Positions 2,638 through 22,995 of a stretch of DNA of 64,000 nt are shown in pieces. The stretch comes from an uncultured Pseudomonadota bacterium (GTDB taxonomy: Bacteria; Pseudomonadota; Alphaproteobacteria; Rs-D84), in assembly GCA_902781465.1 (NCBI GenBank), contig CACZJK010000001.1, forward strand, positions 142,831-206,830, written 5' to 3'. How positions within the stretch are numbered: position 1 is the stretch's first letter; every line of letters begins with the position of its first letter. The position numbers and the translations under genes are program-made. The notes under the pieces were generated by a model that was given only the letters and a program-made list of their open reading frames with translations, did no database searches and was not told the origin of the DNA.

Positions 2638-2641
2638 GACA

Positions 2642-3882: not shown

Positions 3883-3909
3883 AATTTGTTTTTTTGTAAT
3901 CGGTTATTT

Positions 3910-4573: not shown

Positions 4574-6973
<2,400 letters not shown>

Positions 6974-6981
6974 TAAATAAT

Positions 6982-6997
6982 GCCGGGTTTTCCCGGC
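6982..6997 (+). terminator. Rho-independent terminator hairpin GCCGGGTTTTCCCGGC followed by a T-run (after gyrB)
   Basis: Stem-loop plus TTTTT read directly; the same hairpin recurs at 10207-10222. Confidence 0.6.
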
Positions 6998-7010
6998 ATT
7001 TTTCAAATAA

Positions 7011-8910: not shown

Positions 8911-8952
8911 ACGGGACATTATATCATAAAAAAGCAGATAAAACAAATATTG

Positions 8953-8980
8953 TTGCAAAGTAAAAAAAGTCTGTTATAAT
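8953..8980 (+). promoter_or_regulatory. Sigma70-like promoter TTGCAA-16-TATAAT upstream of the tRNA-CAU gene
   Basis: TTGCAA 8953-8958, TATAAT 8975-8980; tRNA 5' end at 8991. Confidence 0.5.
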
Positions 8981-8990
8981 GCTTTTCGCT

Positions 8991-9065
8991 GGCGGCGTAG
9001 CTCAGTGGTAGAGCAGAGGAATCATAATCCTTTGGTCAGGGGTCCGAATCCCTTCGCCGCTACCA
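8991..9065 (+). tRNA. tRNA with CAU anticodon (elongator Met or lysidine-modified Ile2; arm sequences resemble E. coli ileX)
   Basis: Cloverleaf folded by hand: acceptor GGCGGCG/CGCCGCT, D arm GCTC-AGTGGTA-GAGC, anticodon loop ATCATAA (CAT), T loop TCCGAAT, encoded CCA. Confidence 0.85.
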
Positions 9066-9208
9066 AAATAATAAACGACCCTTGTGGTCGTTTTTTATTT
9101 TGATATCTGGGATTTGGACACCGATCCCGGGGTCCGACAACAAGTAGATTTTGGAAGCGGTAGCGCACCAAAATCGTCACGGTTGCCCCGCAGGCATTTA
9201 TGCCGAGG

Positions 9209-9225
9209 GAATCCCTTCGCCGCTA
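9209..9225 (+). repeat. Direct repeat of the tRNA-CAU 3' end (GAATCCCTTCGCCGCTA; tRNA copy at 9046-9062), preceded by a second copy of the T-stem fragment GGGGTCCGA at about 9129; att-like scar or decayed partial tRNA duplicate
   Basis: Exact 17-bp match read directly; the intervening approximately 146 bp contain a terminator hairpin (GACCCTTGTGGTC) and a tRNA-like fragment GGTAGCGCA. Confidence 0.6.
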
Positions 9226-9289
9226 TTTATAAAAATTCCTTTCTTTTTAATAAATATGGTGCAATATTTACTTGGGCGAGGTATAAAAA

Positions 9290-10132
9290 ATGAAAAATAT
9301 TTTAATTACTGGTGCAAATGGTCAATTGGGGTCAGAATTGGCAAGGATTATGCCATCGGCTGTTTTGACGGGACACAATGTTTTAGATATTACTGATAAG
9401 GTTGCTGTTGATAAATTTATAAAATCAAGAAAGATAGATACTGTTATAAATTGTGCTGCTTATACTGCGGTTGATTTAGCAGAAGATAACTATGATGATG
9501 CGTATAAAATAAATGCAATTGGACCAAGAAATTTAGCACAAACAGGATGCAAAATAATTCATATATCAACAGACTATGTTTTTTCTGGAAATGCGAAAGT
9601 CCCATATAAAACAACAGATAAAACAAATCCTTTGTCTGTGTATGGTTCTACTAAATTGGCCGGGGAAAAAGCGATTTTAGAAAATTCTGAAAACGGTATA
9701 ATAATCAGAACTTCTTGGCTATATTCTGAATTTGGAAAGAATTTTGTTAAAACTATGCGCAATCTTGGTGCAAGCAGAAGTGATATTTCGGTTGTTGCGG
9801 ATCAATACGGTTTGCCAACTTATGCGGCGAATTTAGCCTTTGCTATTTTTCAAATTATCCCACAAATAAAGCCGGATAATTCAGGTATATATCATTATTC
9901 AAACTCTGGTTCAGGAATTTCTTGGTATAATTTTGCAGATGAAATAATGAAACAATCTGGTTTGAACTGTGTTGTAAAACCTATAACCACAGATCAGTAT
10001 CCAACACGTGCAGTGCGCCCAAAGTACAGCGTAATGAATACTTCTAAAATACAGAAAACTTTTGGTGTAAAGATACCAATGTGGCAAGACGCGCTGAAAC
10101 ATTGTATCAAAGAATTGGAAAAACAGCATTAA
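9290..10132 (+). CDS. rfbD: dTDP-4-dehydrorhamnose reductase-like (RmlD family) NAD(P)-dependent reductase
   Basis: N-terminal ILITGANGQLGSEL Rossmann motif and overall RmlD length (280 aa); no rmlABC nearby, so the exact substrate is uncertain. Confidence 0.65.
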   Translation: MKNILITGANGQLGSELARIMPSAVLTGHNVLDITDKVAVDKFIKSRKIDTVINCAAYTAVDLAEDNYDDAYKINAIGPRNLAQTGCKIIHISTDYVFSGNAKVPYKTTDKTNPLSVYGSTKLAGEKAILENSENGIIIRTSWLYSEFGKNFVKTMRNLGASRSDISVVADQYGLPTYAANLAFAIFQIIPQIKPDNSGIYHYSNSGSGISWYNFADEIMKQSGLNCVVKPITTDQYPTRAVRPKYSVMNTSKIQKTFGVKIPMWQDALKHCIKELEKQH

Positions 10133-10176
10133 ATATATTGAAAAAAAGTGCTTTTTATGATATAATATAAACCAGT

Positions 10177-10222
10177 TCGACGGGGGATGCCGTCGATTTT
10201 TTTTATGCCGGGTTTTCCCGGC
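10177..10222 (+). terminator. Tandem terminator hairpins (CGACGGGGGATGCCGTCG then GCCGGGTTTTCCCGGC), each followed by a T-run
   Basis: Read directly downstream of the rmlD-like gene. Confidence 0.5.
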
Positions 10223-10249
10223 TTTTTTGTTATAACAAAAGGATAAATA

Positions 10250-11164
10250 ATGAATAAATTTATATTTTCTGGAAATGGTAAAAATAAAGATTTTTATTTT
10301 ACTTTTCCTTTCTTTTCAAATGCTGATATTGTTGTAAAAATCAACAATGATTTAGCGACCGGATATGGTGTTTTCTGTATTCCTGGTACAGGCAATAATG
10401 ATTTTCCTTTTACAGGTGGCCATATTCATTTTGCAACCGCACCAAAGACAACTGATGTCATAACCATAGAACGCAAATTGCAATTAAACCGCCTGATAGA
10501 TTATCAACCAACAGCGCCTCTTAATTCAACAACAGTTAATCAAGATATGAATTATTTCTTTGAATTGCTGAAAGATGTAAAAAGTGAATTGCTGGGTTTT
10601 GCAGAAACTTATAAAGAATTCACAGATACAGAAAGTGCGCAAGAATTGTTGGCGCGCATAGATGCTGTTATCGAAGAAATAGATAATCTTGGCGATATAT
10701 CAACGATAACAAGCAGTATATCAGAACTGGGCTCGTCGATAACAAGTTTGACTAATTCTTTGAACAGTTTGACAAGCACAGTCGGTGCGCATACGACAGA
10801 TATTGTGGCGCTTAGCGCTTTCAAAGACGGGGTTCTTGATTATGTGGTTGAATCGCAAGAACCAACCGCAGAAAACAATTATACCTGGTATCGAAAATAC
10901 AAATCTGGCTGGGTCGAACAAGGAGGTCAGATAACAAACAATAATGGTACTGAAAGAACTATATCTTTACCAATAACTATGACAAATACGAACTACACAT
11001 ATAACGATTGCTTTGAAACAATTATTCGCGAAGGCGGAAGCCCATGGCGAATAGTCGACACACCAAATGTATTAACAAACAAAACAACGACATCTTTTAC
11101 AAGATATATGCCAGATTGCGCAACAATAATACGTTGGAGTGTCTATGGCATTGCAAGCAATTAA
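10250..11164 (+). CDS. Phage tail-fibre-like protein with a T7 gp17-type N-terminal tail-attachment domain, a coiled-coil/Ser-Thr-rich shaft and a C-terminal globular tip
   Basis: N-terminus FSGNGKNKDFYFTFPFFSNADIVVKINN...DVITIERKLQLNRLIDYQP parallels T7 gp17 (DGSNRDFNIPFEYLARKFVVV...TTIELRRVTSTTDRLVDF); middle SSISELGSSITSLTNSLNSLTS repeats; followed by a hairpin terminator at 11165-11195. Confidence 0.55.
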   Translation: MNKFIFSGNGKNKDFYFTFPFFSNADIVVKINNDLATGYGVFCIPGTGNNDFPFTGGHIHFATAPKTTDVITIERKLQLNRLIDYQPTAPLNSTTVNQDMNYFFELLKDVKSELLGFAETYKEFTDTESAQELLARIDAVIEEIDNLGDISTITSSISELGSSITSLTNSLNSLTSTVGAHTTDIVALSAFKDGVLDYVVESQEPTAENNYTWYRKYKSGWVEQGGQITNNNGTERTISLPITMTNTNYTYNDCFETIIREGGSPWRIVDTPNVLTNKTTTSFTRYMPDCATIIRWSVYGIASN

Positions 11165-11177
11165 AAAACGGTTGTTT

Positions 11178-12254
11178 TTACAACCGTTTTTTTCTGTTTT
11201 GTATTTTGTATTTTATCATTGCACCACCATACCAAAAACAAGAAATTATATCTGCAATATAATGTCTTATTTTTTTTAATCTACAAAACGGACGTACTAC
11301 AATCTTATAATGATTTGCAAAATGTTCTTTTAAGTTTTCAAAATATTCACCATTATAATAATCTTTATAAGATTCGTCACAATATCTTTTATAATCTTTT
11401 ACAAAAGTTGGATATAAATATATGCCATGAATCCAATCATCTGCAGCAAGATAATCTTTGTTTTTAGAAAGTTTTTTATATGTTTTTTTCTGAATATATA
11501 CACCAATTTCATTAAACCCAACCGATATAACATTATTAGCTAATAATATATGCGATAATTGAACTTTATCTAATGTATAATCTAATTGGTCTTTCATCTT
11601 GCATTCAGGAAAATAGCGAGAAAAGAAATTCATTCCAACCCATTGTTCTGGCGGAAATTTCCAAGTTGCACCTTTATCGAGTATTTTGAAACCTGTATTT
11701 TTTTCATAAAACAACGAAAAATCAGGTTCATTTGTCAACGGACAGTCATAATAATCTTTTACATCTTCAGTTAACCCAAAACACAACCAATCACTTAAAT
11801 CAAAAGGTCTATCAATAACAAATTTTGGAGATAACGTTTCTTGATAACGAGAAAATATACTATAAAATAAAACACGCTCTTTAAATATTGAATATTTTTT
11901 ATCCCGTTTTGGAAATTGTTTTGCAATATCATTTAATATTTTTGAATTTGTAAATATTAAATCGGAACGCATACGAATAACATATTTTGTTTTAACCGCA
12001 CCTAAACCAGCCTTGGAAGTCACCAAAATACGGTTGGTCATATTGCTTAAAGTTTTTGTTATTTTTGTTGCGCCAGGATCATCAGATTCAACCAAAACAT
12101 CATAATCAAGTCCATCAACATTATGATTTTTATATGTTGAAAATATAATAGTTGCCCCAGGCAAATATTTACGGATGCTTTTTATACATCTTTTTGTCTG
12201 ATGTTTTATGTTTATCCCTTGAACAACAACAGATATATCTTTTGGATTTATCAT
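11178..12254 (-). CDS. Putative LPS/polysaccharide biosynthesis protein (WavE-like family)
   Basis: N-terminal ISVVVQGINIKHQTKRCIKSIRKYLPGATIIFSTY resembles the WavE family start; Y/W-rich and AT-biased like the surrounding glycan genes. Family call is tentative. Confidence 0.35.
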   Translation of the reverse strand: MINPKDISVVVQGINIKHQTKRCIKSIRKYLPGATIIFSTYKNHNVDGLDYDVLVESDDPGATKITKTLSNMTNRILVTSKAGLGAVKTKYVIRMRSDLIFTNSKILNDIAKQFPKRDKKYSIFKERVLFYSIFSRYQETLSPKFVIDRPFDLSDWLCFGLTEDVKDYYDCPLTNEPDFSLFYEKNTGFKILDKGATWKFPPEQWVGMNFFSRYFPECKMKDQLDYTLDKVQLSHILLANNVISVGFNEIGVYIQKKTYKKLSKNKDYLAADDWIHGIYLYPTFVKDYKRYCDESYKDYYNGEYFENLKEHFANHYKIVVRPFCRLKKIRHYIADIISCFWYGGAMIKYKIQNRKKRL

Positions 12255-12979
12255 TTATAATCCTTTTTATTAAAATAATATGTATTATTTCTATCCCAAA
12301 TAAAATTACCAGATTTTAAAACTTTTGCTGGTTGTCCACAGAATATATATGGTTTTTTACTGTTTTTTGGATTTGATGCAGACGTATACAATGTTCTCGC
12401 TCCCAAAATTGAACCATCTGGAATATTCGCACCTTTTAATATTAAACATTGTGTACCAACCCAAACATGATTTCCTATCATTATATTCTTTGGTTTATTA
12501 ATGGCATCACCTTTGTCATCTATTATCGCATGTCCATCCGAAGGCCATATTGTTATATCAAAAGACAACATACAATCCTTGCCTATTTTTACAATTCTTT
12601 CTGGTTCATCATGTAACCATATTTTTGCACCTTCAACAGAACAATCAGAATCTATAAGCAACTTGCTGTATCTTGACATTCTAGCAGGTATGATTAAATC
12701 TTTTATATAAAAGTTAGTTTGTTTTATTTCTATAATATTATCATCACCTACTTCAAAATAACAATTGATAAATCTATAAGGTTCATGTATTTTTACAACA
12801 CTATTTTGCCCCAAAAATTTAATTGTTAATCCTTTGACTTTTTTTATTTCTTTTATTTTGCCATCTTTTTTAACAATTAATATTTTGTTGTTCTTTATTC
12901 TGGACAACATGTCAAAATATTTACATGTTTTACCAAAAGTTAAATGCTTTAATAATCTATATAAATTATTACGCGACAT
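12251..12979 (-). CDS. Hexapeptide-repeat (left-handed beta-helix) O-acetyl/acyltransferase
   Basis: Hexapeptide repeats IGNHVWVGTQCLILKGANIPDGSILGARTL; typical WbbJ/NeuD-like size. Confidence 0.6.
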   Translation of the reverse strand: MSRNNLYRLLKHLTFGKTCKYFDMLSRIKNNKILIVKKDGKIKEIKKVKGLTIKFLGQNSVVKIHEPYRFINCYFEVGDDNIIEIKQTNFYIKDLIIPARMSRYSKLLIDSDCSVEGAKIWLHDEPERIVKIGKDCMLSFDITIWPSDGHAIIDDKGDAINKPKNIMIGNHVWVGTQCLILKGANIPDGSILGARTLYTSASNPKNSKKPYIFCGQPAKVLKSGNFIWDRNNTYYFNKKDYK

Positions 12980-12982
12980 AAC

Positions 12983-13990
12983 CTAGCCTTTGTAATTTTT
13001 TTGATATTCAATAATTTCTTTTAATCCGTCCAATAAATCTGTTTTTGCAACATAGTCAAATTCAGCACGGACTTTGTCGCCATTACCAAGGCAATGTTTA
13101 AATACTTCTTGTTTTACGCGTTCTTTTTTCAAGTTATAACGCGCATTAAACAATTCTTCGTATTTATCCCAAAACTTTAATGGTTCACCTGTATCATATT
13201 CTAATTCTTTACCCAACGCAGCATAGATTGTTTGAGCTATTTCCATTGCAGAATATGCTTTACCGGTTGCCAAATTGAAAATATCTGCATGATATTCTTT
13301 GTCTGACATTGCCATACGATACAAATATTGCATCAAATCATAAACATAGATATAATCGCGTTTACAATCTTCTGTGTTATAAATTGTTGGTTTACGTCCC
13401 GCCAATGCTTCACGAATCAAGAAAGATGTAAATGGTGGATATTTACGTTTAAAATCTTGGTGTGGACCAAACACGTTAAAGAAACGACATATTACAATAT
13501 CCATACCATAATTTTGTGCAAATGATTTACAAATTTGTTCTGAACAATATTTAGTTGTTGCATAAACTAAATTTGGGTGAACTTCATCTGTTTCTTTGTG
13601 AACTTCATCAGATGGATTGTTTTCATAAATTGCAGATGTTGATGCGAATATAACACGTTTTACATTGCTGCGACGAACCGCATTTAATACATTAGCAGTT
13701 GCAGCCGTATTCACATCAAACGCTTTATATGGATGTGATTCACATTCTGGTAACGCAGAAATCCCAGCAAAATGATAAACAATATCAATTCCTTCTAAAT
13801 ATTTACCAAAATCAGGGTCACGAACATCTGCCATGATAAAGTTTTGTTTTAACGTTTCATTATCTTCAAAATTATCACGATAACCATATTCCAAATTATC
13901 CAACAATTTTACATTATGTCCTTGAGATAATAAAAATTTTCCCAATTCAGAACCTATGAAACCTGCACCACCTGTGATAAGAATATTCAT
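12983..13990 (-). CDS. NAD-dependent nucleotide-sugar epimerase/dehydratase (extended SDR)
   Basis: MNILITGGAGFIGSELGKFL Rossmann motif; YxxxK region; 335 aa. Confidence 0.75.
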   Translation of the reverse strand: MNILITGGAGFIGSELGKFLLSQGHNVKLLDNLEYGYRDNFEDNETLKQNFIMADVRDPDFGKYLEGIDIVYHFAGISALPECESHPYKAFDVNTAATANVLNAVRRSNVKRVIFASTSAIYENNPSDEVHKETDEVHPNLVYATTKYCSEQICKSFAQNYGMDIVICRFFNVFGPHQDFKRKYPPFTSFLIREALAGRKPTIYNTEDCKRDYIYVYDLMQYLYRMAMSDKEYHADIFNLATGKAYSAMEIAQTIYAALGKELEYDTGEPLKFWDKYEELFNARYNLKKERVKQEVFKHCLGNGDKVRAEFDYVAKTDLLDGLKEIIEYQKNYKG

Positions 13991-14005
13991 GTTTTTCCCT
14001 TTTGT

Positions 14006-15064
14006 TTAATCTATGTAATCTTTGATTGACGAATTACGCGGTAATGTGATTGCAATGCCAGAAGGATATGGATTTGTTGGTGCAAAATCATTTATAACTA
14101 CACGTGCCGCGTGATTCATTCCCATTAAAATTGCATATGGTTTTATGCCAACTTCATTTAACATTTTTTGAAGGTTTTCACGAAATTCTTCGCCACGTGA
14201 AGTTGTTATAACTATTTGTGCGCCGTTATCCTGTAATTGTTTTAATGTTTCCACATTGTCTTCCAACATGGTTGTATTGTTATACCAATTTATTTTTCCA
14301 TATTTGCCAGAATTTTTCATTATAACACCATCAACATCTACAAAATATGTGCGGTGTTGTTTTTGAACTTTTTTCCATTCAGTTAATGTTCCCCAATCAT
14401 CATAAGAATCTGCATAAACCGCCTCAAAAACATAATTATCAGATGATAACATATACGAAATTACGTGTGATATATACATTTCGCCAGAAATTTGGTGGCT
14501 TTGCATTTCTTCGTATGCTTTTACAAAATCGTTTGCGTTTTCAAAACAATATACCCCCAAACAAATTACATTTGATACAACCTGTTTTTCGATAATGTCT
14601 TGGATAACACCTTGTTCATTTACTATCAAGAAACTTTTCCCTGGGATATTTGTGACGTCACGATGTTTATGCAAATCATACCCAACAATCATATTTTTTA
14701 TTTGTTTATCAAAATGAACACCAACACGATTATCTGAATCTTTGATAACAAAAGAACCTTCGACATTCATTTTCTTTAGTGTTAAATATATTGTTTCGCT
14801 GGCGCTTGAAGTAAAATCGTCCAATAAACAAATTTCTACCTTTGGATTGTTTTCAAAGACTTGATGCATAATAAGGTTTGCTTCGTATTTATCGTCGTGT
14901 GGTTTTACGATTGTAATTATGATACGGTCAAAAACGTCAATATTGATGTTTTCCATAGCCTTTTCAATCATTAATTTTCCATCTGGATGAGTAAGCATAT
15001 ATTTGGGTTTCATATTTGGGAAACGACTTGATTTTCCAGCACATGGAATTATAAGGGTATTCAT
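14006..15064 (-). CDS. Bifunctional sugar-phosphate/phospho-alcohol nucleotidyl(cytidylyl)transferase (LicC/IspD-like N-domain) fused to a HAD-family phosphatase domain
   Basis: N-terminus LIIPCAGKSSRFPNMKPKYML (nucleotidyltransferase G-loop); C-terminal YFVDVDGVI...TTSRGEEF (HAD motifs I-III). Confidence 0.55.
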   Translation of the reverse strand: MNTLIIPCAGKSSRFPNMKPKYMLTHPDGKLMIEKAMENINIDVFDRIIITIVKPHDDKYEANLIMHQVFENNPKVEICLLDDFTSSASETIYLTLKKMNVEGSFVIKDSDNRVGVHFDKQIKNMIVGYDLHKHRDVTNIPGKSFLIVNEQGVIQDIIEKQVVSNVICLGVYCFENANDFVKAYEEMQSHQISGEMYISHVISYMLSSDNYVFEAVYADSYDDWGTLTEWKKVQKQHRTYFVDVDGVIMKNSGKYGKINWYNNTTMLEDNVETLKQLQDNGAQIVITTSRGEEFRENLQKMLNEVGIKPYAILMGMNHAARVVINDFAPTNPYPSGIAITLPRNSSIKDYID

Positions 15065-15924
15065 TATTTATTCTCCTTATTATCTAAAATGTTATTCAAT
15101 TTCGTGATTGCGTTATGTAAAAATGTCCGTGTAGTATCATCTTTTGCGTATGGGACAATTCGCATAACATTTAAAAGCAAGATGTAATAAATCTGTAAAA
15201 CTTTTTTATTACCATCCGGTAATTCAGAAATGTATTTAATTAAGCCATCGCGCGCGACCGCCAATCTTAATTCAAGATTTGACGATATTTCTTCATGACG
15301 ATAAGACCATTGTAATTCAAGATCTTGTAATAGTTTTGCCACATCTATCATCCAAGAATCGAAAAATGAATCTAAAAAGTCTATTAAATAAATATTGCCT
15401 TTGACGTCTAATAATATGTTTTCTAAAGTTAAATCACCGTGACATTTAGAATACGGAATTTCAGAAAAATTAAAACCTTCCAATCTTTTTAGTGCGTTTA
15501 TATAAATGTCTTCGGTTGGAATATTGTTATAAAGCGATTTAATTTTCTTTTGAAAAATTTCATTTGTTTCTGGCATAACAACACTATCATCAATGTGTAA
15601 TTCATTAACAACCCATTCAACAAATGCAGGTATTTCTTTGATTGATACTGTTTCCATATACTTCGCCATTGTACAGCAATTCAAATATTCCATATCAAAA
15701 TAAAAAATACCATCTTGGATACCTGTTTTATAAATTTGCGGAACACGAATATTTGAATTTTTCGATGATTTATAACCAACTTGTTTTGCGATTTGTATTC
15801 GTAATCTTTTGTTATAATCTGGACGCCCCGCTGTTTTACGGACGAAGAAAAGATCATTTTCGCGGAACAGTGAAATTTCACATCCACTGTGTCCCGATAA
15901 ATTTTTTATAAATTGTTCTGACAT
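15064..15924 (-). CDS. Choline/aminoglycoside-kinase-family small-molecule kinase (LicA-like)
   Basis: Brenner motif HGDLTLENILLD and DFLDSF metal-binding motif of the APH/ChoK fold; stop/start is coupled with the cytidylyltransferase gene. Confidence 0.55.
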   Translation of the reverse strand: MSEQFIKNLSGHSGCEISLFRENDLFFVRKTAGRPDYNKRLRIQIAKQVGYKSSKNSNIRVPQIYKTGIQDGIFYFDMEYLNCCTMAKYMETVSIKEIPAFVEWVVNELHIDDSVVMPETNEIFQKKIKSLYNNIPTEDIYINALKRLEGFNFSEIPYSKCHGDLTLENILLDVKGNIYLIDFLDSFFDSWMIDVAKLLQDLELQWSYRHEEISSNLELRLAVARDGLIKYISELPDGNKKVLQIYYILLLNVMRIVPYAKDDTTRTFLHNAITKLNNILDNKENK

Positions 15925-15946
15925 TATTTTTTCCTAAAATATTCAA

Positions 15947-16834
15947 TTAATCAAATTTTCCAATTGAAAAGACAAAACTAAACCAGTTAAACAAATTGAT
16001 ATCTATGTTCGTTATTGGCGGTAAAATACGCAATAAGTGAATAAAGATACCTTTTTTCCTTAAATGGAAACTTATTATGTTTGAACGGTTTAATTTTATT
16101 TGTGCAAAGCGTTTAATCTTGAAAGATTTTATATATTGATACGAACCAAGATATACTGGACGTAAATTATGTGATAAAATATTATCTATTAAAAAACCTT
16201 CGGCATGATAATCTATGTTATCTCCTTTTTTTGCAGGCACTTTTAATTTGTCGCAAAGTTTTGATATTGCTTTTGCACCACCAAAAAATAATAAATCGAC
16301 AGTTTCAACATAATTTAATCCATACATATCACGATCTGGGGTGTGTCCTGCCAGATATATATTTGTCCCATCTTGATTAAATTTATCGTTTATGTATTTT
16401 TCAATCTTCAAATCTTCTAACAACACAACATCAGGTCTTATACAAACAACCATATCGTATTTAATCTTGTGTTTTTTTTGGTAATCTTCGCGTAATTTAT
16501 TAACTGTTTTAATAGAATGATATACAGACATTAAACCTTGAAGAGCGAATTCGTATCCGTGGACTATAATTTTATCGTCAGTATATAATTTTTGATGTTC
16601 GATTTTGATTTGTTCTGGCAAAATACCGAGTTTTTGTATTATTTGTTCTTGATTAACTTTCTTATTTACATTTTTGAAATTATTATGCCAAGTCTTTGAA
16701 TTATGGTTGTATGTATCCCATGTATGCATAAAAATATCGCACTCATAGCGATTTAATAAGTGTCTTTTTATTGACGGCAGGCATTTTTCAAATGTCCTTA
16801 AATGACCAAAAAATTGAACCGCTATGCGTGGCAT
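15947..16834 (-). CDS. Hypothetical protein, possible sugar transferase; first gene of the minus-strand glycan operon
   Basis: 295-aa ORF immediately outside IR-L of the invertible segment; no firm motif. Confidence 0.45.
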   Translation of the reverse strand: MPRIAVQFFGHLRTFEKCLPSIKRHLLNRYECDIFMHTWDTYNHNSKTWHNNFKNVNKKVNQEQIIQKLGILPEQIKIEHQKLYTDDKIIVHGYEFALQGLMSVYHSIKTVNKLREDYQKKHKIKYDMVVCIRPDVVLLEDLKIEKYINDKFNQDGTNIYLAGHTPDRDMYGLNYVETVDLLFFGGAKAISKLCDKLKVPAKKGDNIDYHAEGFLIDNILSHNLRPVYLGSYQYIKSFKIKRFAQIKLNRSNIISFHLRKKGIFIHLLRILPPITNIDINLFNWFSFVFSIGKFD

Positions 16835-16860
16835 AAAAAACTCTTTTTTTCTATAAAAAC

Positions 16861-16881
16861 CAATCGGTCGTTTGATGTTTA
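16861..16881. repeat. IR-L: CAATCGGTCGTTTGATGTTTA, left arm of a 21-bp perfect inverted repeat (hix/gix-like recombination site)
   Basis: Exact reverse complement of 17577-17597; contains the imperfect palindrome ATCAAACGACCGATTGAT, whose half-site ATCAAAcgACC resembles the Hin/Gin half-site ATCAAAAACC. Confidence 0.8.
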
Positions 16882-17489
16882 CAGGTTTTGACTGTGCAAA
16901 AATGCGTAAAGTGTTGGTGGGGAAATTTTGAATTTTCTGGCTATTTTGGTCTTTGGCATGTCTTTGGCATACCTTGTTTTATCATATTTATTATTTTGTT
17001 TTCGTTGCCATCGATTTTATGATGCGTGTTTTTACTGCCAAAACGCCGCCCAAGAATCACACCTGCTTCGCGACGGCGCGCCAAGGCTTCACGTGTGCGC
17101 AGACTGATTAAATCTCGTTCTATTTCTGCGGAAATTCCAAACGCAAAAGCCAATACTTTCGATTGAATATTGTCACCCAATTCATAGCCGTCTTTGACGG
17201 TATAAACATAAGCCCCACATTTCATACAATGTTCCAAAATTCGCATAATCATAAATAATTTTCGGCCCAGGCGCGATAATTCAGAACAGATAATAATGTC
17301 GCCGGTTTTCAGTTTTTTCAAAATTCCACCAAGTGCACGATTATTTGGTTCGACTGTCCCAGAAATTCCAGAATCCATAATATATTTATCTATTGTTATT
17401 CCCATAGATTTGGCCTTGGTTATAATTCCTGTTTTCTGGTTTTCACAGTCTTGTTTATCTGTGCTGACGCGAATATATCCGTATATCAT
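16879..17489 (-). pseudogene. Hin/Gin/Cin-family small serine DNA invertase, frameshifted by an 11-bp tandem duplication; the present ORF (16941-17489) lacks the C-terminal HTH
   Basis: N-terminus MIYGYIRVSTDKQ (catalytic Ser) and resolvase core. The + strand shows GTCTTTGGCAT twice in tandem (16949-16959, 16960-16970). Removing one copy restores ...GMPKTKIARKFKISPPTLYAFLHSQNL* with a Hin-type HTH and a stop at 16879-16881 inside IR-L. Confidence 0.7.
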
Positions 17490-17543
17490 TTTGTTTTCCT
17501 TTTTTTGTGTTGTTATATCCAAATAGGAAAACAAACAAACGCT

Positions 17544-17572
17544 TGATATTAAAGAAACTTATTTGTATAGTA
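17544..17572 (+). promoter_or_regulatory. Near-consensus sigma70 promoter TTGATA-17-TATAGT inside the invertible segment, reading outward across IR-R into the + glycosyltransferase operon
   Basis: TTGATA 17544-17549, 17-nt spacer, TATAGT 17567-17572; RBS AAGGA then ATG at 17623. Confidence 0.55.
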
Positions 17573-17576
17573 TTCA

Positions 17577-17597
17577 TAAACATCAAACGACCGATTG
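17577..17597. repeat. IR-R: reverse complement of IR-L (AAACATCAAACGACCGATTG plus flanking base)
   Basis: Exact 21-bp inverted match to 16861-16881. Confidence 0.8.
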
Positions 17598-17622
17598 ATT
17601 TTAATAAAATAAGGATTTTTAT

Positions 17623-18702
17623 ATGGCAAAAAAGATTTTCGTTTCTTTGAAAAAATTTTCTATTAATTTTGTGGGGTTAAGGTTTAAAAGACATCATATT
17701 AAAAATAATACTATTTTATTACTGGAAACTAATGTTTGTCATGGTGAAGTTATGTCGGGTTATATCGAATACTTCAAAAGATTGGGATATAATATAGATT
17801 GCGTTTTACATACAGATTTTTTACAAGATAATCCTTTTTCAAGACATGATATGTCAAAAATAAACTGTTTTTATTTAAATAAAATTTGTATGAAAAGATT
17901 TATAAAATACAAAAATATTCGTAAATATAAACATGTTGTTATTATGTCTAGTACTTATTATGGAGATTTTGGTTGGGAAGGCGTGATTGATTTTGCGCCT
18001 GAATTAAAACGCCACCCTTCTGTTTATCTTGTCGAACACGAATTGAATTGTATCGAACCGCAAAACGAACAAGAATACCTTGATAAAAATCATATAATAG
18101 TTCTTGGTAAGTTTGATCGTGGTGTTTTTGTGAACCCGCATTTGTTTGGTAATGTAAAAATTACCAAAAAGAACAAAATTCCAACTTTTATAAGTGTTGG
18201 TGGAATTATGGCATTCAGGAAAAATCATGCCGAATTGATTTCTGCAATACAGGAATTGGTTAAACAAAAACAGAAGTTTAAAGTGGTTGTTATTGGGCGT
18301 GGAAAATTAAATGATTTGCCAGATGAAATCAAACCTTATATTGAAATTACAGGGCGTTTAAATTTTCCAGAAATGTTTGAACAAATGGAAAAAGCAGACT
18401 TTTTCCTGCCTTTACTTGATCCAAATAATCCAGACCATGAACGCTATATTACAACCGGTGTGACAGGTTCTGCTCAATTGATATACGGTTTTGAAAAGGT
18501 GCCTGTGATACAAAAAAAGTTTGCAAAGTTTTATCGTTTCAACAATAAAAACGCGATAGTTTTTGAAAAAAGTTTGGCAACCGCCATGTCAAAAGCCATT
18601 TCTTTATCAGGACAAGAATACAATACTTTGCAATCAAATTTACACAAAACCGCACAAGAAATTCAAAAAGAAAGCTTTGATAATTTGAAAAGGATATTTT
18701 AA
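17623..18702 (+). CDS. Hypothetical protein, possible GT-B-fold glycosyltransferase; first gene of the + glycan operon
   Basis: C-terminal KVVVIGRGKLNDLP...EITGRLNFPEMFEQMEKADFFLPL resembles the C-domain of GT4-like enzymes; weak. Confidence 0.4.
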   Translation: MAKKIFVSLKKFSINFVGLRFKRHHIKNNTILLLETNVCHGEVMSGYIEYFKRLGYNIDCVLHTDFLQDNPFSRHDMSKINCFYLNKICMKRFIKYKNIRKYKHVVIMSSTYYGDFGWEGVIDFAPELKRHPSVYLVEHELNCIEPQNEQEYLDKNHIIVLGKFDRGVFVNPHLFGNVKITKKNKIPTFISVGGIMAFRKNHAELISAIQELVKQKQKFKVVVIGRGKLNDLPDEIKPYIEITGRLNFPEMFEQMEKADFFLPLLDPNNPDHERYITTGVTGSAQLIYGFEKVPVIQKKFAKFYRFNNKNAIVFEKSLATAMSKAISLSGQEYNTLQSNLHKTAQEIQKESFDNLKRIF

Positions 18703-19658
18703 TGAAAATATCAATTGTTGCACCGATTTATAACACTGGAAAATTCTTACCAGAGTGTATTGATAGTGTATTAAATCAAACTTTCCAAGATTGGGAATTG
18801 ATTCTGGTGAATGATGGATCACCAGATAACAGCGAAGAAATTTGTAAAAAATATATAAAGAAAGATAAAAGAATACGGTATTTTTATCAAAAAAATTCTG
18901 GTGTTTCTGTGGCGCGCAATTTAGGTATATCAAAGGCAAAAGGTGAATATGTTTTTTGTATGGATTCTGACGATACTTTGGATTCCAGATTTATTGAAAC
19001 TTCTTATGATGTCGCAATTAAAAATGATTCTGATATAGTCGTTATTGGTGATTGGTTTGCATGTCGTTTGCCACGGCCCGCAGCACTGCCAACTTGTGCA
19101 ATGTTATTGCGTAAAAGTTTTTTAGATAACCACAAAAATATTCGTTACCCCATTGGAATACAACCATGTGAAGATGGTCTTTTTTCACATCAATTATTGG
19201 CATTGACTGATAAAATCGCTTTTAATCCAATGGGAATATATAATTATCGTGAACACGAAAACGGAAACCATATTGCAATAAATAAATCATGTGAAAAAGT
19301 GTTAAAGCAAATTCCACAATGGTTTGAAATATTGGAAAAGTTTTATGATAAATATGATCTTTGGGATAAACATGGTTCGCATCTTTTGAAATTTATAGAA
19401 CACGAACCTTTTGATTTCAGATTTAGATCGATGCCATTTTCTTCAGATCAAAAAGAATTTTTATTTAAAATAATACACGATTTTATGAATAAACATAATT
19501 TAAGAAAGTATAGAAATAGAAAATTGTCAAAGCGATTTAGATTGTTTTTGTTAGCTTCTTCTTATATAAAATATGAAAAATATATATGCATATATAATTC
19601 TATAGTCAAATTTTTACATACATTTAAACAGCGCAGACCAGAAAAGGATAACACATGA
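18702..19658 (+). CDS. Glycosyltransferase family 2
   Basis: ISIVAPIYNTGKFLPECIDSVLNQTF...ILVNDGSPD...MDSDD (GT-A DXD). Confidence 0.85.
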   Translation: MKISIVAPIYNTGKFLPECIDSVLNQTFQDWELILVNDGSPDNSEEICKKYIKKDKRIRYFYQKNSGVSVARNLGISKAKGEYVFCMDSDDTLDSRFIETSYDVAIKNDSDIVVIGDWFACRLPRPAALPTCAMLLRKSFLDNHKNIRYPIGIQPCEDGLFSHQLLALTDKIAFNPMGIYNYREHENGNHIAINKSCEKVLKQIPQWFEILEKFYDKYDLWDKHGSHLLKFIEHEPFDFRFRSMPFSSDQKEFLFKIIHDFMNKHNLRKYRNRKLSKRFRLFLLASSYIKYEKYICIYNSIVKFLHTFKQRRPEKDNT

Positions 19659-20815
19659 AACTGTTGTTAGTTGTAAATTCGTCTCTTATTAATTCTACCG
19701 GTGGTGTTGAGCACGTTTTGTGTGATATGGCAAATGAAATGGAAAAACGTGGTTTTGATGTTCATATTGCAACAATGGAAAACAAAGAAGGAAAGCCTTT
19801 TTTCTATTTAAATAAAAATATAAGTTTTAAGAATTTGTACCCAGAATTGAGCAATAAAAATAAATTTATAAAAAAATTGATATCGCTATTTTTGAAGATA
19901 GCAGGCAAAAATAATTATAGGGATTTTTATTTCAAATCTTTAGTTTATCAAAAATATATACATTCTATTCAACCAGATTTAATAATAGCTTTTTCTTTGC
20001 CGACATTATTGGAGATGACATATACGAATAAAGGAAAATGTCCAATTATATTGACTGTTCATGGAAACCCAGTTAATGATTATACAGATAGGTTTTGGTC
20101 AAGGCCAACTTATATGAATAAATTATTTAGAAAAACTTATAAAAATGCAGATGTTATACAGGTCCTTTTGGATAGTTATAAATCTTTTGTTCCAAAAGAA
20201 TATAAGGGTGAAGTAATAACAATTGGAAATATAGCACCTTTTGTCTCAAAAGAACCGTTGTCATTAGATAAACAAAAAATTACAAGTATTGGACGACTTT
20301 GTTTGGAAAAACATCAAGATTTATTAATAAAGGCTTTTGCTAAAATCAGTGATAAATTTCCAAATTGGTCTTTGGATATATATGGTGAAGGTTATTTAAG
20401 AGAAGAATATCAAAGCCTGATTGATAAATTAAAAATGACAAAAAAGATTCATTTAAAAGGTACTAGCAAGAAAACGAAAGAAATTTTAATAAATTCTTCC
20501 TTATTTGTTTTACCGTCACATGTTGAAGGGTTCCCTTTGGTGTTAGCAGAAGCAATGGGAGTAGGGTTGCCTTGTATTGGATTGCAAGATTGTGATGGGA
20601 CAAATGAAATTATAAAACATAAAGAAACAGGTTTTTTGGTTGCTGATGATGAAAATGATTTGGCAAAAGCGATGAGTTTGTTGATGTATGATTCTAAATT
20701 AAGACAAAAATATGGAAAAAACAGCCAACATGAAATGTTGCAATATTCATCTAATATAATTTGGGATAAATGGGAAGATTTAATTAAAAAAACAATCAAC
20801 GAAAAGAGAAAATAA
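19655..20815 (+). CDS. Glycosyltransferase family 4 (GT-B)
   Basis: C-terminal EGFPLVLAEAMGVGLPCIG motif; overlaps the upstream gene by 4 nt. Confidence 0.85.
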   Translation: MKLLLVVNSSLINSTGGVEHVLCDMANEMEKRGFDVHIATMENKEGKPFFYLNKNISFKNLYPELSNKNKFIKKLISLFLKIAGKNNYRDFYFKSLVYQKYIHSIQPDLIIAFSLPTLLEMTYTNKGKCPIILTVHGNPVNDYTDRFWSRPTYMNKLFRKTYKNADVIQVLLDSYKSFVPKEYKGEVITIGNIAPFVSKEPLSLDKQKITSIGRLCLEKHQDLLIKAFAKISDKFPNWSLDIYGEGYLREEYQSLIDKLKMTKKIHLKGTSKKTKEILINSSLFVLPSHVEGFPLVLAEAMGVGLPCIGLQDCDGTNEIIKHKETGFLVADDENDLAKAMSLLMYDSKLRQKYGKNSQHEMLQYSSNIIWDKWEDLIKKTINEKRK

Positions 20816-20816
20816 T

Positions 20817-21695
20817 ATGAAAAAGAATTTACCGGTTTGTAATCTTAGTGTAAAAGCTGGGTTGGGAAATAGGATAAAAGGATTGTTTTCTTTTATTCGT
20901 CAATATCAACCAAAAGAAATGATTTTAATTTGGCCTAAAACTCTTGTCAAAAAATCTTTTTTAGAATTATTTTGCTTTGATTATCCTGTAAAAATTTATG
21001 AAAAAGATATTCCAAATTATAATATCCCTGAACAGTCTTGGCGTTTTTATGTGTCAGAATCCGACAATATTTCAAAAAACTTTTCAAAAATTCCATTAGA
21101 TTTTAATGACCCTGTTTTTGATTTGGAATACAATAGAACACCAAAAAGAATGGTAAAAGTATATTCGCAATATTTTCAAAAATTAAAACCAAACGCAAAT
21201 ATTCAAAAAATTATTAATTCTGTTATATTGCCAAAAAATACAGTTGCTTTGCATGTTCGAAACCATTCTGATTGGAAAGATGGTGGTAGAAATACAAATT
21301 TGAAAGAATTTACCAAATGTATGGATAAATATTCTAAGGATACTTTTTTCTTTTTATCTGCTCATGATAAAGATATATCTGATTATTTTAAGAAAAAATA
21401 TAAAATAATAGAAGTTCCAAATAAAAATTATTCATCAATAGAATATGCGATTGCTGATTTATATTTATTATCAAAATGTAAAGAAGCAATTTATTCTTGT
21501 GGTTCTACTTTTTCAGAAATCTCTTGGTGGATTGGCGGGTGCAAGGCCAAAGCGCATGTTATAGGCTCTTATGATGATTGGGTTGAAGTAAATAAAAGAA
21601 TTAAATTTTTCAGAATAGAAAAAACTGAAAATCGTACAAGATTTTACTTTTTTGGTAAAAAAATATTATCGATAAAAAGACCTACTAAAAAATAG
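20817..21695 (+). CDS. Putative fucosyltransferase-like glycosyltransferase (GT11-like motifs)
   Basis: HVRNHSDW (compare GT11 HxRRGDY) and C-terminal CGSTFSEISWWIG (compare GT11 SNSTFSWWAA). Confidence 0.4.
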   Translation: MKKNLPVCNLSVKAGLGNRIKGLFSFIRQYQPKEMILIWPKTLVKKSFLELFCFDYPVKIYEKDIPNYNIPEQSWRFYVSESDNISKNFSKIPLDFNDPVFDLEYNRTPKRMVKVYSQYFQKLKPNANIQKIINSVILPKNTVALHVRNHSDWKDGGRNTNLKEFTKCMDKYSKDTFFFLSAHDKDISDYFKKKYKIIEVPNKNYSSIEYAIADLYLLSKCKEAIYSCGSTFSEISWWIGGCKAKAHVIGSYDDWVEVNKRIKFFRIEKTENRTRFYFFGKKILSIKRPTKK

Positions 21696-21707
21696 CAGGT
21701 CTAATAT

Positions 21708-22013
21708 TCATGCCTTTGGATATTTTGATTTTATCTCGGCAATTTTTTCTTGCCATTTGTTTGTGTTGTTAACTTTATCCCAATATATCATATCCAGTTG
21801 TTCTGAAATGCTTGGATATTCATTTTGCCTTTTTTCAACGTAAGTTTTTTCTGGTTCAATTGGTGCATAACCTTTGACATACAAAAGTCCATCATATCCG
21901 GTTTCTGTTTCGCCTGTATAAACTTCCATGCCCCATTTTTTTACTCGTTCTTGATTGTTTTTTGTATCAAGCCATTCATTTAATATAAAACTATTTTTTT
22001 CTTTGACTAACAT
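21708..22013 (-). CDS. Small phage-associated protein (about 101 aa), probable tail-fibre assembly/chaperone-type partner; start MLVKEKNS overlaps the upstream stop (TAATG)
   Basis: TAATG stop/start overlap with the tail-fibre-like gene; acidic, W/Y-rich. The six-frame ORF extends further to 22088, inside the upstream gene. Confidence 0.4.
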   Translation of the reverse strand: MLVKEKNSFILNEWLDTKNNQERVKKWGMEVYTGETETGYDGLLYVKGYAPIEPEKTYVEKRQNEYPSISEQLDMIYWDKVNNTNKWQEKIAEIKSKYPKA

Positions 22014-22540
22014 TATAAACTCCCTTTTAACGGAAAAATTTTTAAAGATCTGTCCACGTTGCGACCGCCAACCATTTTCCAATACCACCCTTTTGGAACA
22101 TAAAATTCACCAGAAATTTTAAAAGAACCAGAGCCTGCATTTGATTCACGTAATGTTGTAAAAGTATTGCCATCAGAAGACACACATGGGGCAACATTAG
22201 GATTTCCATCAATGTGATTAGTCTGATAATTAACAACACAATCATAATCTGCTAAATATGTTGTGTCCCAATTCTTACTGACAGGTGCAGAATAATCTGG
22301 CGTTGATAGGTTAGATATAACTTTTTTACCTGTTGTGCTTATGTTATCCATATCTGTATTGGCTTTTGATGTGACGGTTGGTATTTCGCTTTGTTTGGCC
22401 AATTTTATGCCGCCTGCGGTTTCACCATCGTGAACACGTAATGTTTTATTTGTTGTGTCCATGGTGACTTCGCCAATTGCGCCGGTAAAGGCATCATTTT
22501 CCGTCGCTGTTCCGCGACGAATTTGTATTTGTCTTGACAT
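22013..22540 (-). CDS. Small phage tail-fibre-like protein carrying the HylP/tail-fibre N-terminal motif
   Basis: IQIRRGTATENDAFTGAIGEVTMDTTNKTLRVHDGETAGGIKLA matches the conserved N-terminal block of phage hyaluronidase/tail-fibre proteins (…RxxxAxW…L..GE.G.ETDT..lK.GDG). Confidence 0.5.
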   Translation of the reverse strand: MSRQIQIRRGTATENDAFTGAIGEVTMDTTNKTLRVHDGETAGGIKLAKQSEIPTVTSKANTDMDNISTTGKKVISNLSTPDYSAPVSKNWDTTYLADYDCVVNYQTNHIDGNPNVAPCVSSDGNTFTTLRESNAGSGSFKISGEFYVPKGWYWKMVGGRNVDRSLKIFPLKGSL

Positions 22541-22674
22541 TAAATTACTCCATTTTTATATAAAAAAGGCCGGCATTTGCCGGCAATTAAACAAATAAAA
22601 ACGACGGTTTTGCCCCATCGAATTGCTTTTATTATATCATAATTTCAATAAAAAATCAATGTTTTGCTTTTTAT

Positions 22675-22702
22675 TTGATTTTTTGCGATTCATGGGTATA
22701 AT
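22675..22702 (+). promoter_or_regulatory. Sigma70-like promoter TTGATT-16-TATAAT for tRNA-Thr
   Basis: TTGATT 22675-22680; TATAAT 22697-22702; tRNA starts at 22714. Confidence 0.5.
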
Positions 22703-22713
22703 ATCTGGCGATT

Positions 22714-22787
22714 GCCCTAATAGTCTAGTGGTAAAACACGTCCTTGGTAAGGACGAGTCGCAAGTCCGATTCTTGCTTAGGGCACCA
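22714..22787 (+). tRNA. tRNA-Thr (GGU)
   Basis: Acceptor GCCCTAA/TTAGGGC; anticodon stem CGTCC/GGACG with loop TTGGTAA; T arm GCAAG-TCCGATT-CTTGC; encoded CCA. Confidence 0.85.
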
Positions 22788-22948
22788 GGTTTTTTCAAAT
22801 ATGTTGATGCGACTGACAACCGCGGAGTGTTTGTGAAATCTTAAAAGTAAGAAAAGCAGGGTGGCACCGCGCGAAAAAATCTTAGCGCCCCTGTGATTTA
22901 AGATTTGAATTGGTGCCGTATCCAAAAATTTTATTACGACACCGAAAT

Positions 22949-22972
22949 CCCACTTCGCCAAGGCTTCGTGGG
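22949..22972 (+). repeat. Conserved hairpin motif CCCAC-TTC-GCC-AA-GGC-TTC-GTGGG (copy 1 of 2; copy 2 at 55151-55176)
   Basis: Shared core CTTCGCCAAGGCTTCG; the outer stem differs by compensatory changes (CCCAC/GTGGG versus CCCGCC/GGTGGG). Confidence 0.4.
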
Positions 22973-22995
22973 ACAAGCAAAAAAAGGTGTAAAAA

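Follow-up and report, generated by a model that had tools for sequence, protein, structure and literature searches.

Phage-type fibre genes at the ends of surface-glycan operons in an alphaproteobacterial lineage, Candidatus Enterousia (Rs-D84)

Why would a bacterium keep genes for phage-type tail fibres at the ends of its surface-glycan operons? The question is raised by a locus of an uncultured alphaproteobacterium of the order Rs-D84 (GenBank assembly GCA_902781465.1, contig CACZJK010000001.1, positions 142,831 to 206,830). This stretch of 64,000 nucleotides is the window, and all positions below are given in its numbering. Between a tRNA-Met and a tRNA-Thr gene lie an rmlD-like gene, a first fibre-like gene (TF1), two divergent glycan operons around a DNA invertase gene, and a second fibre-like gene (TF2) with a coupled small gene, in the order that a first-pass annotation had described. 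That annotation took the locus for a decayed prophage whose seroconversion cassette had expanded into a glycan locus. Its observation is partly confirmed and largely correct; its prophage interpretation is not supported. The locus is one case of a hypervariable surface-glycan locus type found throughout Candidatus Enterousia/Rs-D84, in which each glycan operon has, tail-to-tail at its end, a stand-alone gene for a phage-type receptor-binding fibre. The best explanation, which we regard as probable though by no means assured, is a switchable and swappable glycan locus with host-kept fibre genes that are matched to the neighbouring glycan.

The features of the locus are listed below. Names such as L044 or L121 denote DNA loci or contigs of relatives or viruses that were compared with the window; GC is the guanine plus cytosine content, and IRL and IRR are the left and right inverted repeats (IRs).

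8991-9065, plus strand: tRNA-Met (CAT), called by ARAGORN and Rfam; backbone at the left border, inside a stretch 93% identical to L044
9066-9226, plus strand: tRNA-Met-fragment scar of a small separate insertion site, with fragments at 9129-9139 and 9209-9225
9290-10132, plus strand: rmlD-like gene for dTDP-4-dehydrorhamnose reductase (Pfam RmlD_sub_bind, E 8e-99)
10138-10249, plus strand: TF1 leader, from a promoter and terminator scan
10250-11164, plus strand: TF1, fibre-like gene 1 (304 aa)
10250-10925, plus strand: conserved part of TF1, codons 1-225 (anchor, predicted coiled-coil shaft, motif)
10926-11164, plus strand: hypervariable tip of TF1, last ~80 aa, a predicted beta-sandwich receptor-binding domain
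11178-16834, minus strand: left glycan operon of six genes (Pfam)
16846-17612: invertible segment, with IRL at 16846-16881 and IRR at 17577-17612
16941-17489, minus strand: Mpi-like serine invertase (Pfam Resolvase, NCBIfam)
17623-21695, plus strand: right glycan operon of four genes (Pfam)
21708-22013, minus strand: 101-aa gene, partner of TF2, whose ATG overlaps the TF2 stop codon (TAATG)
22013-22540, minus strand: TF2 (175 aa), with an Mtd_N anchor (aa 1-55) and a variable C1q/TNF-like tip
22541-22660, minus strand: TF2 leader, laid out like the TF1 leader
22714-22787, plus strand: tRNA-Thr (GGT), called by ARAGORN and Rfam; divergent from TF2

Fibre anchors, fibre tips and the glycan genes beside them

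Both TF1 and TF2 are intact genes of the host, and their phage-fibre domains are genuine. The similarity of both open reading frames (ORFs) to phage fibres, which the first-pass annotation had proposed, is borne out by profile, sequence and fold searches (PHROG, Pfam Mtd_N, PDB 9EFK/1YU4, Foldseek). Residues 1-110 of TF1 match PHROG 30017 (E 2.6e-12), PHROG 1640 (tail) and PDB 9EFK, the tail fibre of the Legionella phage LME-1 (E 4.7e-6). The N-terminus also matches gp17 of P-SSP7 in a tblastn search, and Foldseek groups the N-domain with the fibre N-domains of LME-1, Carin-1, Kp7, PhiM1 and T7. In the LME-1 fibre, the same N-domain contacts the adaptor and the nozzle (PMC12407071). An AlphaFold2 model of TF1 (pLDDT 75) consists of an N-terminal beta domain, long helices at 93-195 and a C-terminal beta sandwich. 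The predicted helices would form a coiled-coil shaft, possibly trimeric, with profile matches to the coiled coils of sigma-1, fibritin and trimeric adhesins (E 5e-4 to 0.03). The conserved part of the protein includes the motif DYV.ESQ.PT..NNYTWYRKYKSGWVEQGG, and the tip segment is hypervariable in the family alignment. Residues 184-304 match the C-termini of 400-1100-aa fibres on 33 IMG/VR contigs, at 33-67% identity to the window protein, and the highest tip identity between a chromosomal and a phage fibre is 81% (L054 vs L009). By Foldseek, the tip resembles the fibre C-termini of R-type pyocins (R1/R2) and an H-type lectin.

TF2 carries a different anchor. It matches Pfam Mtd_N (PF18454; E 3.7e-12, 46.4 bits against a cut-off of 26.3), and its residues 1-73 match PDB 1YU4 (Mtd) at E 6e-10; TF2 also matches PHROG 9648 (tail). 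A Foldseek search with the TF2 model returns Mtd first and C1q/TNF domains next, with C1q/TNF jelly rolls as the best matches of the C-terminal domain. Within the TF2 family, N-terminal identity is 85-95% and the C-terminus is variable. Across genomes, the anchor keeps 75-90% protein identity although third codon positions are only ~60% identical, which argues that it is functionally constrained; conservation by gene conversion between genomes is ruled out by the same divergence of third positions. The 101-aa partner of TF2 matches PHROG 9114 with its C-terminus (E 5e-13), and its homologues occur only after fibres with a '..FPLKG' tip type, on TF1- and TF2-type anchors alike. Because the homologues track tip type and not anchor type, the partner, which is translationally coupled to TF2, is a candidate tip-type-specific fibre chaperone. 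Domain shuffling is common in these families: TF1 anchors carry TF2-type tips (P0033, P0038), and Mtd_N proteins carry TF1-type tips (L121, L123, L125). NCBIfam has no model for TF1, TF2 or the 101-aa partner.

Because of its anchor, TF2 was also considered as an Mtd-type target of a diversity-generating retroelement. This candidate was rejected, since TF2 has 175 aa vs 381 aa for Mtd and its C-terminal fold is C1q/TNF-like, not of the C-type lectin kind. No reverse-transcriptase domain occurs among the 20 island and immediately flanking proteins (7011-27318), and no direct repeat involving the 3' end of TF2 was found, leaving no template/variable repeat pair.

A comparison with L044, a close relative, divides the window into blocks.

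2183-9138, core flank: 93% identity
9129-10926, rmlD and TF1 codons 1-225: 92% identity
10927-16853, last 80 TF1 codons and the entire left operon: no similarity
16854-17675, invertible segment: 85% identity
17680-18711, first gene of the right operon: 78% identity
beyond 18711, remaining right operon: none except a 170-nt match (66%) between GT2 genes

The recombination breakpoint is within a fibre gene, at codon 225 of TF1. The tip-coding 3' parts of the fibre genes and the glycan genes next to them are exchanged as a single cassette. Their 5' parts behave differently. For the part of TF1 shared with L044, nonsynonymous and synonymous divergence (pN/pS) are 0.031/0.209 (ratio 0.15), similar to those of rmlD (0.049/0.229, 92% identical to the L044 gene), and the synonymous divergence is like that of gyrB. 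On these grounds, leader and anchor belong to a vertically inherited backbone and are under purifying selection, and rmlD, too, is a conserved backbone gene outside the swapped cassette.

The coupling of tip and glycan genes is not confined to this pair of genomes. We compared pairs of TF1 genes across 62 loci and scored a downstream glycan homologue as shared at >=50% identity. Such a homologue was shared by 67% of the pairs with tips >=60% identical (six pairs), by 18% of the pairs at 40-60%, and by 1-2% otherwise. None of the six pairs has upstream genes in common, and anchor identity within them goes down to 45%. In these comparisons, similar tips accompany similar glycan genes at unrelated chromosomal sites.

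In several respects, this resembles the replacement flexible genomic islands that hold glycotype or O-antigen genes: the same site, flanks 92-93% identical, unrelated low-GC glycan genes, and no mobility genes. It differs in that one recombination arm lies inside a fibre gene, such that the receptor-binding tip is exchanged with the glycan genes. The position of the breakpoint could mean that the fibre genes have no function for the cell and are mere landing pads, with leader and anchor serving phages and transforming DNA as a homology arm for moving tip-plus-glycan cassettes. The flanking paralogues of L041, 97% identical in their 5' parts, and a phage with the same leader and anchor would fit this idea. 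However, the anchors are conserved as protein and not as DNA (third positions ~60%; pN/pS 0.15), the ORFs are intact and of constant length in ~70 loci of genomes that shed useless DNA, and the tips keep a folded domain and a chaperone. We consider landing pads a very improbable explanation.

Glycan operons and the segment between them

The left operon (27-33% GC) encodes WavE-like, hexapeptide acyltransferase-like, NDP-sugar epimerase/dehydratase, nucleotidyltransferase+HAD, kinase and DUF7796 proteins. The right operon (26-30% GC) encodes a GT1-like glycosyltransferase (GT) of 359 aa, GT2 and GT4 enzymes, and a 292-aa protein without assigned function. WavE is a family of the lipopolysaccharide (LPS) core, and the locus lacks a flippase, a polymerase and an ABC exporter. 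The glycan product is therefore probably a variant of the LPS outer core or of lipooligosaccharide, not a capsule.

The two operons are separated by a segment with an invertase gene between inverted repeats of 36 nt that are 89% complementary. The 20-nt core of the repeat occurs exactly twice in the 64-kb window, against 0.01 expected, and in L044 (29 nt, perfect) and L051 (19 nt, perfect), the homologous invertase gene lies between copies of the same core. In L051, the left repeat is doubled at 16000-16055, where two copies of AAACGGTCGTTTGATGTTT lie 37 nt apart; alternative inversion end points are possible there. The enzyme matches Pfam Resolvase (E 3e-30) and PHROG 125, DNA invertase (E 2e-35), and its best family is Mpi of Bacteroides (NCBIfam NF009949; E 1.8e-71, 240 bits, below the equivalog cut-off of 272). 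The invertase is thus Mpi-like and sits between conserved inverted repeats. The first-pass annotation had thought of a Hin/Gin-type phage tail-fibre switch. This does not hold, as the enzyme is closest to Mpi and the segment lies between glycan operons and bears a promoter-like site, not a fibre gene. This site is a pattern match only: TTGATA-17-TATAGT at 17543-17571 on the plus strand, 10/12 of the consensus, just inside IRR and facing the right operon.

Five independent assemblies (L001, L002, L003, L045, L051) stop at or inside the invertible segment, and the names of two contigs imply assembly k-mers of 87 and 141, longer than the repeats. Because the repeats are shorter than the assembler k-mers, the contig breaks point to mixed orientations in the sampled populations. 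Judging by this pattern, the invertase probably flips the promoter between the two operons. Inversion would turn the outward promoter towards one operon or the other, and the operon that it faces would be transcribed; in the orientation of the window, this would be the right one. The locus would then alternate between two glycoforms, and each operon would have a fibre of its own.

The Mpi loci of Bacteroides fragilis provide the closest precedent for the switch. They share with the window a serine invertase of the Mpi family and short inverted repeats around a segment upstream of glycan operons that bears a promoter or, in the window, a promoter-like site; mixed orientations, to which the contig breaks point here, would be a further parallel. 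There are differences as well. Apart from its score under the equivalog cut-off, the window invertase is encoded inside its own flipped segment, like hin. One segment between divergent operons would make an either/or toggle, whereas Mpi operates on/off switches at many loci; and there is a single pair of inverted repeats in 64 kb, in an alphaproteobacterium and not in Bacteroides.

An order-wide arrangement, its leader and its borders

Homologues of TF1 form >1150 clusters, and those of TF2 >520. In a scan with one genome per species, all 195 TF1 relatives came from gut or rumen metagenome-assembled genomes (MAGs) labelled Candidatus Enterousia, Alphaproteobacteria or proteobacterium. Genomes of the order Rs-D84 are smaller than 1 Mb (PMC12306168), and TF1 is present in 2-3 copies per MAG. 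The TF1 proteins of relatives are only 30-76% identical, and the arrangement is still kept. Of 70 loci, 66 have a convergent gene as the next one downstream of TF1 (median gap 29 nt). The two genes downstream are mostly concerned with glycan biosynthesis (GT2 20, hexapeptide transferase 10, epimerase 9, GT1 7, GT11 6), and on the upstream side the two neighbours have housekeeping functions (ribosomal protein S1, ABC transporters, M48 peptidase, DsbA, adenylate kinase, LpxK). GC is 34.7% downstream of TF1 vs 39.4% upstream, the downstream side being lower in 42 of 50 loci. Mtd_N fibres likewise adjoin a glycan cluster in all loci examined (L041, L043, L121, L123, L133, L134), and some fibre loci adjoin restriction-modification genes.

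In L041, two Mtd_N fibre genes bracket a pair of divergent glycan operons, just as TF1 and TF2 do in the window. These two genes (10001-10519 and 19882-20394) are 97% identical over the first 150 nt, third codon positions included. As a side observation, the L041 fibre pair forms long inverted repeats, which could invert or homogenise the whole locus.

The fibre genes also share a leader. In front of TF1, a promoter TTGAAA-17-TGATATAAT at 10138-10166 is followed by two terminator-like hairpins, each with a T-run (hairpin 1 at 10177-10196, hairpin 2 at 10207-10222), then by the palindrome TTTTGTTATAACAAAA and a Shine-Dalgarno sequence. The scan of this leader found a promoter matching 11/12 and three terminator-like sites, against 0.1 expected. 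The consensus is TTGatt-17-TGnTATAAT, a hairpin with T-run twice, an AT-rich palindrome (TTTTGTTATAACAAAA in TF1), GGAG and ATG. This layout is present in ~65 of 71 TF1 loci, where the stem sequences vary between loci and their pairing is kept; it also precedes most chromosomal Mtd_N fibre genes examined. Between the TF2 and TF1 leaders, there is a 50-nt inverted match, with 78% column identity in a pairwise alignment. When the leaders were folded one by one and compared with shuffled controls, at least one terminator-like hairpin was found in 43 of 44 vs 28 of 220 shuffled sequences, and two in 27 of 44 vs 2 of 220. RNAalifold, run on a MAFFT alignment of the 44 leaders, gave no pairs, stems of unequal length being misaligned. 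In 2.1 Mb of Enterousia loci, exact copies of the palindrome sit before TF1 genes; the other matches listed have one mismatch or are opposite-strand readings. An Rfam scan of 8800-23200 at E up to 1 returned the two tRNAs plus noise and nothing else, and thus no known RNA family over the fibre leaders. Because two intrinsic terminators separate a near-consensus promoter from the start codon, expression of the fibres may be conditional and require read-through or antitermination, as in phage late genes.

Two further sequence elements are of note. The extended -10 motif TTATGATATAATA occurs five times in the window (4522-4534, 8917-8929, 10155-10167, 22630-22642 and 32216-32228; 0.6 expected), once upstream of pagL, and appears to be a strong housekeeping promoter type of the organism, not a fibre-specific signal. 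The aspS leader contains a GC-rich hairpin of 25 nt, CCCACTTCGCCAAGGCTTCGTGGGA (22949-22973), which has no other copy in the window. It or close variants are inserted in the TF1 leaders of L050 (exact), L075, L098 and L105, and it looks like a small mobile hairpin similar to repetitive extragenic palindromes or miniature inverted-repeat transposable elements (REP/MITE-like). A weak Rfam T-box match (E 0.28) at 22795-22895 is located upstream of this hairpin and does not overlap it.

Is the locus, then, what remains of a prophage at a tRNA gene, with an expanded O-antigen-conversion cassette and with fibres and invertase as phage remains? Its fibre domains are phage-derived, its tips are common to real phage fibres, and it has flanking tRNAs and a duplicated tRNA-Met 3' fragment. 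Serotype-converting prophages (P22, Shigella SfV/SfX, epsilon15) similarly carry glycan-modifying genes beside a fibre or tailspike gene near a tRNA. The borders argue otherwise. The 17-nt exact copy of the tRNA-Met 3' end at 9209-9225, 147 bp past the tRNA, is real, with none expected by chance. L044, however, carries a 2-kb insert exactly there (L044 6915-8884), with a VanY/M15 peptidase gene, a 109-aa gene and a flanking 27-nt tRNA fragment. The copy in the window for this reason marks a separate small insertion scar of ~150 bp and not a boundary of the 13.5-kb island. (The VanY/M15 peptidase and the 109-aa protein of L044 could be a lysis-type cassette.) No second copy of either tRNA end was found at the far border of the island, and the ends of tRNA-Thr have no second copies. 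Both tRNAs are confirmed in the window, but a location between two tRNAs is not conserved, since in L121 housekeeping genes separate them. The recurring feature is a tRNA directly upstream of a fibre gene and divergent from it, and the tRNA-Thr/fibre pairing is present in L121.

Composition and gene content point the same way. The marked AT-richness that had been ascribed to the whole island is limited to the glycan genes (26-32% GC), while rmlD (34%), TF1 (36%), the invertase (39%) and TF2 (39%) are host-like, the flanking core genes having 37-40% (gyrB and aspS 40%). The island has no integrase, its sole recombinase being the small serine invertase (Pfam, NCBIfam), and it has no gtr-type (gtrABC) genes. 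Phage structural genes are absent within 10 kb of a fibre gene in the window and in ~70 relatives. Unlike serotype-converting prophages, the window thus has no integrase, att sites, gtrABC or phage structural genes, and the arrangement is order-wide (66/70 loci), not sporadic. A gene order conserved across distant relatives with host-like composition is what the first-pass annotation had named as speaking against a prophage, and the fibre-glycan arrangement, with host-like fibre composition, is indeed kept across diverged relatives.

The exact leader motif was found on one of 2.9 million IMG/VR contigs, vs at least 55 of ~70 chromosomal TF1 genes that it precedes. The TF1-type anchor occurs in 1 of 34 viral loci, and close anchor relatives are mostly proteins of 250-350 aa. 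The anchor-carrying viral contig (L007/L127, IMGVR_UViG_3300033463_010496) is a contractile-tailed phage. Its fibre gene is its only gene with the host-type leader, the anchor is host-type as well, and a GT-like gene lies beside the fibre gene, a point in favour of the prophage reading. These similarities suggest that fibre and glycan modules may have been exchanged between phage and host. In the same phage, a block of opposite-strand genes is placed between the baseplate and fibre genes, ~3.5 kb upstream of the fibre; it encodes a 314-aa protein that is 47% identical to the product of a gene in the chromosomal glycan cluster of L069. Taken together, the tRNA fragment in a separate scar, the lack of integrase and att repeats at the island borders, the host-like GC and pN/pS of the fibre genes, and the same architecture at many chromosomal sites of ~70 diverged genomes, always without phage structural genes, leave the decayed prophage as the least probable of the explanations considered here. 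Of the first-pass interpretation, the fibre similarity stands and the decayed prophage with its expanded seroconversion cassette falls.

Some neighbouring genes of the window deserve mention. At 7011-7685, a 224-aa protein without Pfam match is recognized by the PADLOC 'OGG' model (E 4.5e-19). The uracil-DNA glycosylase gene (7669-8334) begins inside the coding sequence of this protein, and the pair is kept beside gyrB in L044 and L121. At 46868-51668, three paralogues of the AMP-binding/acyl-CoA-ligase type (~526-530 aa) follow one another in tandem and resemble each other at their N-termini. L133 has a single copy of such a gene followed by an Mtd_N fibre and a glycan cluster, neither of which is present there in the window. 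Finally, a second glycan region starts at 60988 with tandem GT2 paralogues (60988-62007 and 62008-62997) and a GC content down to 30%; it continues past the end of the window at 64000.

What the fibres may do for the cell

In the explanation that we favour, each fibre tip would match, and most likely bind, the glycan made by the neighbouring operon. The fibres would be made conditionally, given the two terminators in their leader. Their conserved anchors would fix them to a phage-like particle that the host encodes and conserves. The model for this is the gene transfer agent of Rhodobacter capsulatus (RcGTA) with its unlinked genes for fibres and head spikes. In Enterousia, such a particle would be directed to cells with the same type of glycan. 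A conserved host-encoded docking partner for the anchors is plausible.

The fibre and head-spike proteins of RcGTA are encoded away from its main cluster and bind the producer's own capsule (PMC10218006, PMC5026251). As with rcc00171 and ghsA/ghsB, the Enterousia genes are host-maintained genes for phage-type receptor-binding proteins in an alphaproteobacterium, unlinked from a head-tail cluster, and a genome has two different types of fibre. They stand alone, each with a leader of its own, are subject to purifying selection and occur in several copies per genome; in this sense, they are unlinked and host-maintained as expected of accessory fibres of a gene transfer agent (GTA). The differences are that no GTA or particle cluster was found at the Enterousia loci scanned (the window plus 2.1 Mb of fibre-biased loci), that the anchors are of podovirus-fibre and Mtd type, with a PDB profile search free of any RcGTA match, and that the Enterousia fibre genes abut glycan operons and share a swappable cassette with them. 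To our knowledge, such a shared cassette has not been described for RcGTA.

R-type pyocins and other tailocins offer a second comparison. The fold of the TF1 tip resembles the fibre C-termini of R1 and R2 pyocins, which bind LPS, and TF2 has a small, tip-specific candidate chaperone encoded immediately downstream. In contrast to these systems, there are no sheath, tube or baseplate genes near the fibres or in the 2.1 Mb of loci scanned, and the Enterousia fibres have ~175-300 aa vs ~700 aa for pyocin fibres.

Several observations weigh against the favoured explanation. Its weakest step is the phage-like particle: no particle genes were found in the DNA scanned, the lack of phage structural genes near the fibres extends to ~70 relatives, and the structural proteins of the anchor-carrying phage have no homologue in the 2.1 Mb of Enterousia loci, which are biased to fibre neighbourhoods. 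The sheath family of that phage is limited to contigs of at most ~50 kb, with two exceptions of 55 kb and 103 kb, and is absent from large chromosomal contigs. Neither TF1 nor TF2 has a signal peptide. Instead of terminating transcription, the leader hairpins might act as mRNA stabilisers or as insulators of the gene. Inversion is deduced from contig breaks, the opposite junction not having been seen directly. The linkage figure for the most similar tips rests on the 6 pairs, with 22 more at 40-60%, and the convergent geometry is not universal, the layout being co-directional in L134 and divergent in L075 and L105.

Alternatively, the fibres might serve as anti-phage decoys or receptor masks. 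Released fibres would occupy the cell's own glycan on sister cells or spoil virion assembly, and glycan types would travel with the matching decoy. The lack of a host particle in the DNA scanned is in line with this idea, as are tips that share up to 81% identity with the tips of free phage fibres, the co-inheritance of tip and glycan genes, the restriction-modification genes that adjoin some loci, and a terminator-bearing leader that would permit induction upon infection. However, the fibres have no export signal, and receptor masking needs no strictly conserved N-terminal domain for virion attachment. The TF1 anchor is rare in phage contigs (1/34 viral loci), with close relatives mostly of ~300 aa, which leaves little phage assembly to poison. 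PADLOC assigns TF1, TF2, the 101-aa partner and the invertase to no defence family; a match to AbiTi at E 0.003 falls on the TF1 coiled coil. We judge a decoy function unlikely, if far from negligible.

The fibres could also be lectins on the cell surface, adhesins for the cell's own glycan type (kin aggregation) or for a partner cell, in a lineage thought to be an obligate symbiont or parasite. Lectin-like or C1q-like tip folds and the co-inheritance of tip and glycan genes speak for this possibility, and Rs-D84 genomes suggest dependence on other cells (PMC12306168). The first-pass annotation had named retained lectins as its alternative, and this would fit the evidence better than the decayed prophage because fibre tip and adjacent glycan genes are inherited as one cassette. 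Yet a signal peptide is lacking, and sequence features and Pfam reveal no membrane anchor or autotransporter domain in either fibre. The anchors are homologous to phage-tail docking domains, the leader is laid out like that of a phage late gene, and a phage-style tip chaperone has been retained. Surface lectins appear quite unlikely to us.

A more far-reaching version of the matched fibre-glycan locus, which we put forward tentatively and with considerable doubt, is that the loci are self-recognition cassettes. In each of them, a glycan operon would be inherited with its cognate fibre tip, and the fibres would arm a domesticated phage-like particle or act alone, in DNA delivery, killing or adhesion according to the glycan type toggled by the invertase. 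Such a cassette would be a hard-wired ligand-receptor ('greenbeard') module in which a phage fibre gene is joined to a glycan operon.

In this locus, a glycan island that can be replaced, an Mpi-like promoter switch and phage receptor-binding genes kept by the host come together in a new combination that is found across the lineage; the coupling between fibre tip and glycan genes is its new element. Surface-glycan diversity is usually viewed as phage escape, and the receptor-binding proteins of phages as evolving on their own in the phage genomes. In the present lineage, a host of fewer than ~900 genes itself maintains several receptor-binding genes of the phage type, placed where its glycan operons end. 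Their conserved leader, with a promoter, two terminators and a palindrome, is a candidate new regulatory element. If the tips bind the neighbouring glycan, the loci would provide pairs of lectin domain and glycan gene set that can be read from sequence for an uncultured group, and would offer a way of predicting phage host range from host genomes. It may then also be that Candidatus Enterousia possesses a self-recognition module, or GTA-like particle targeting outside the known GTA clades.

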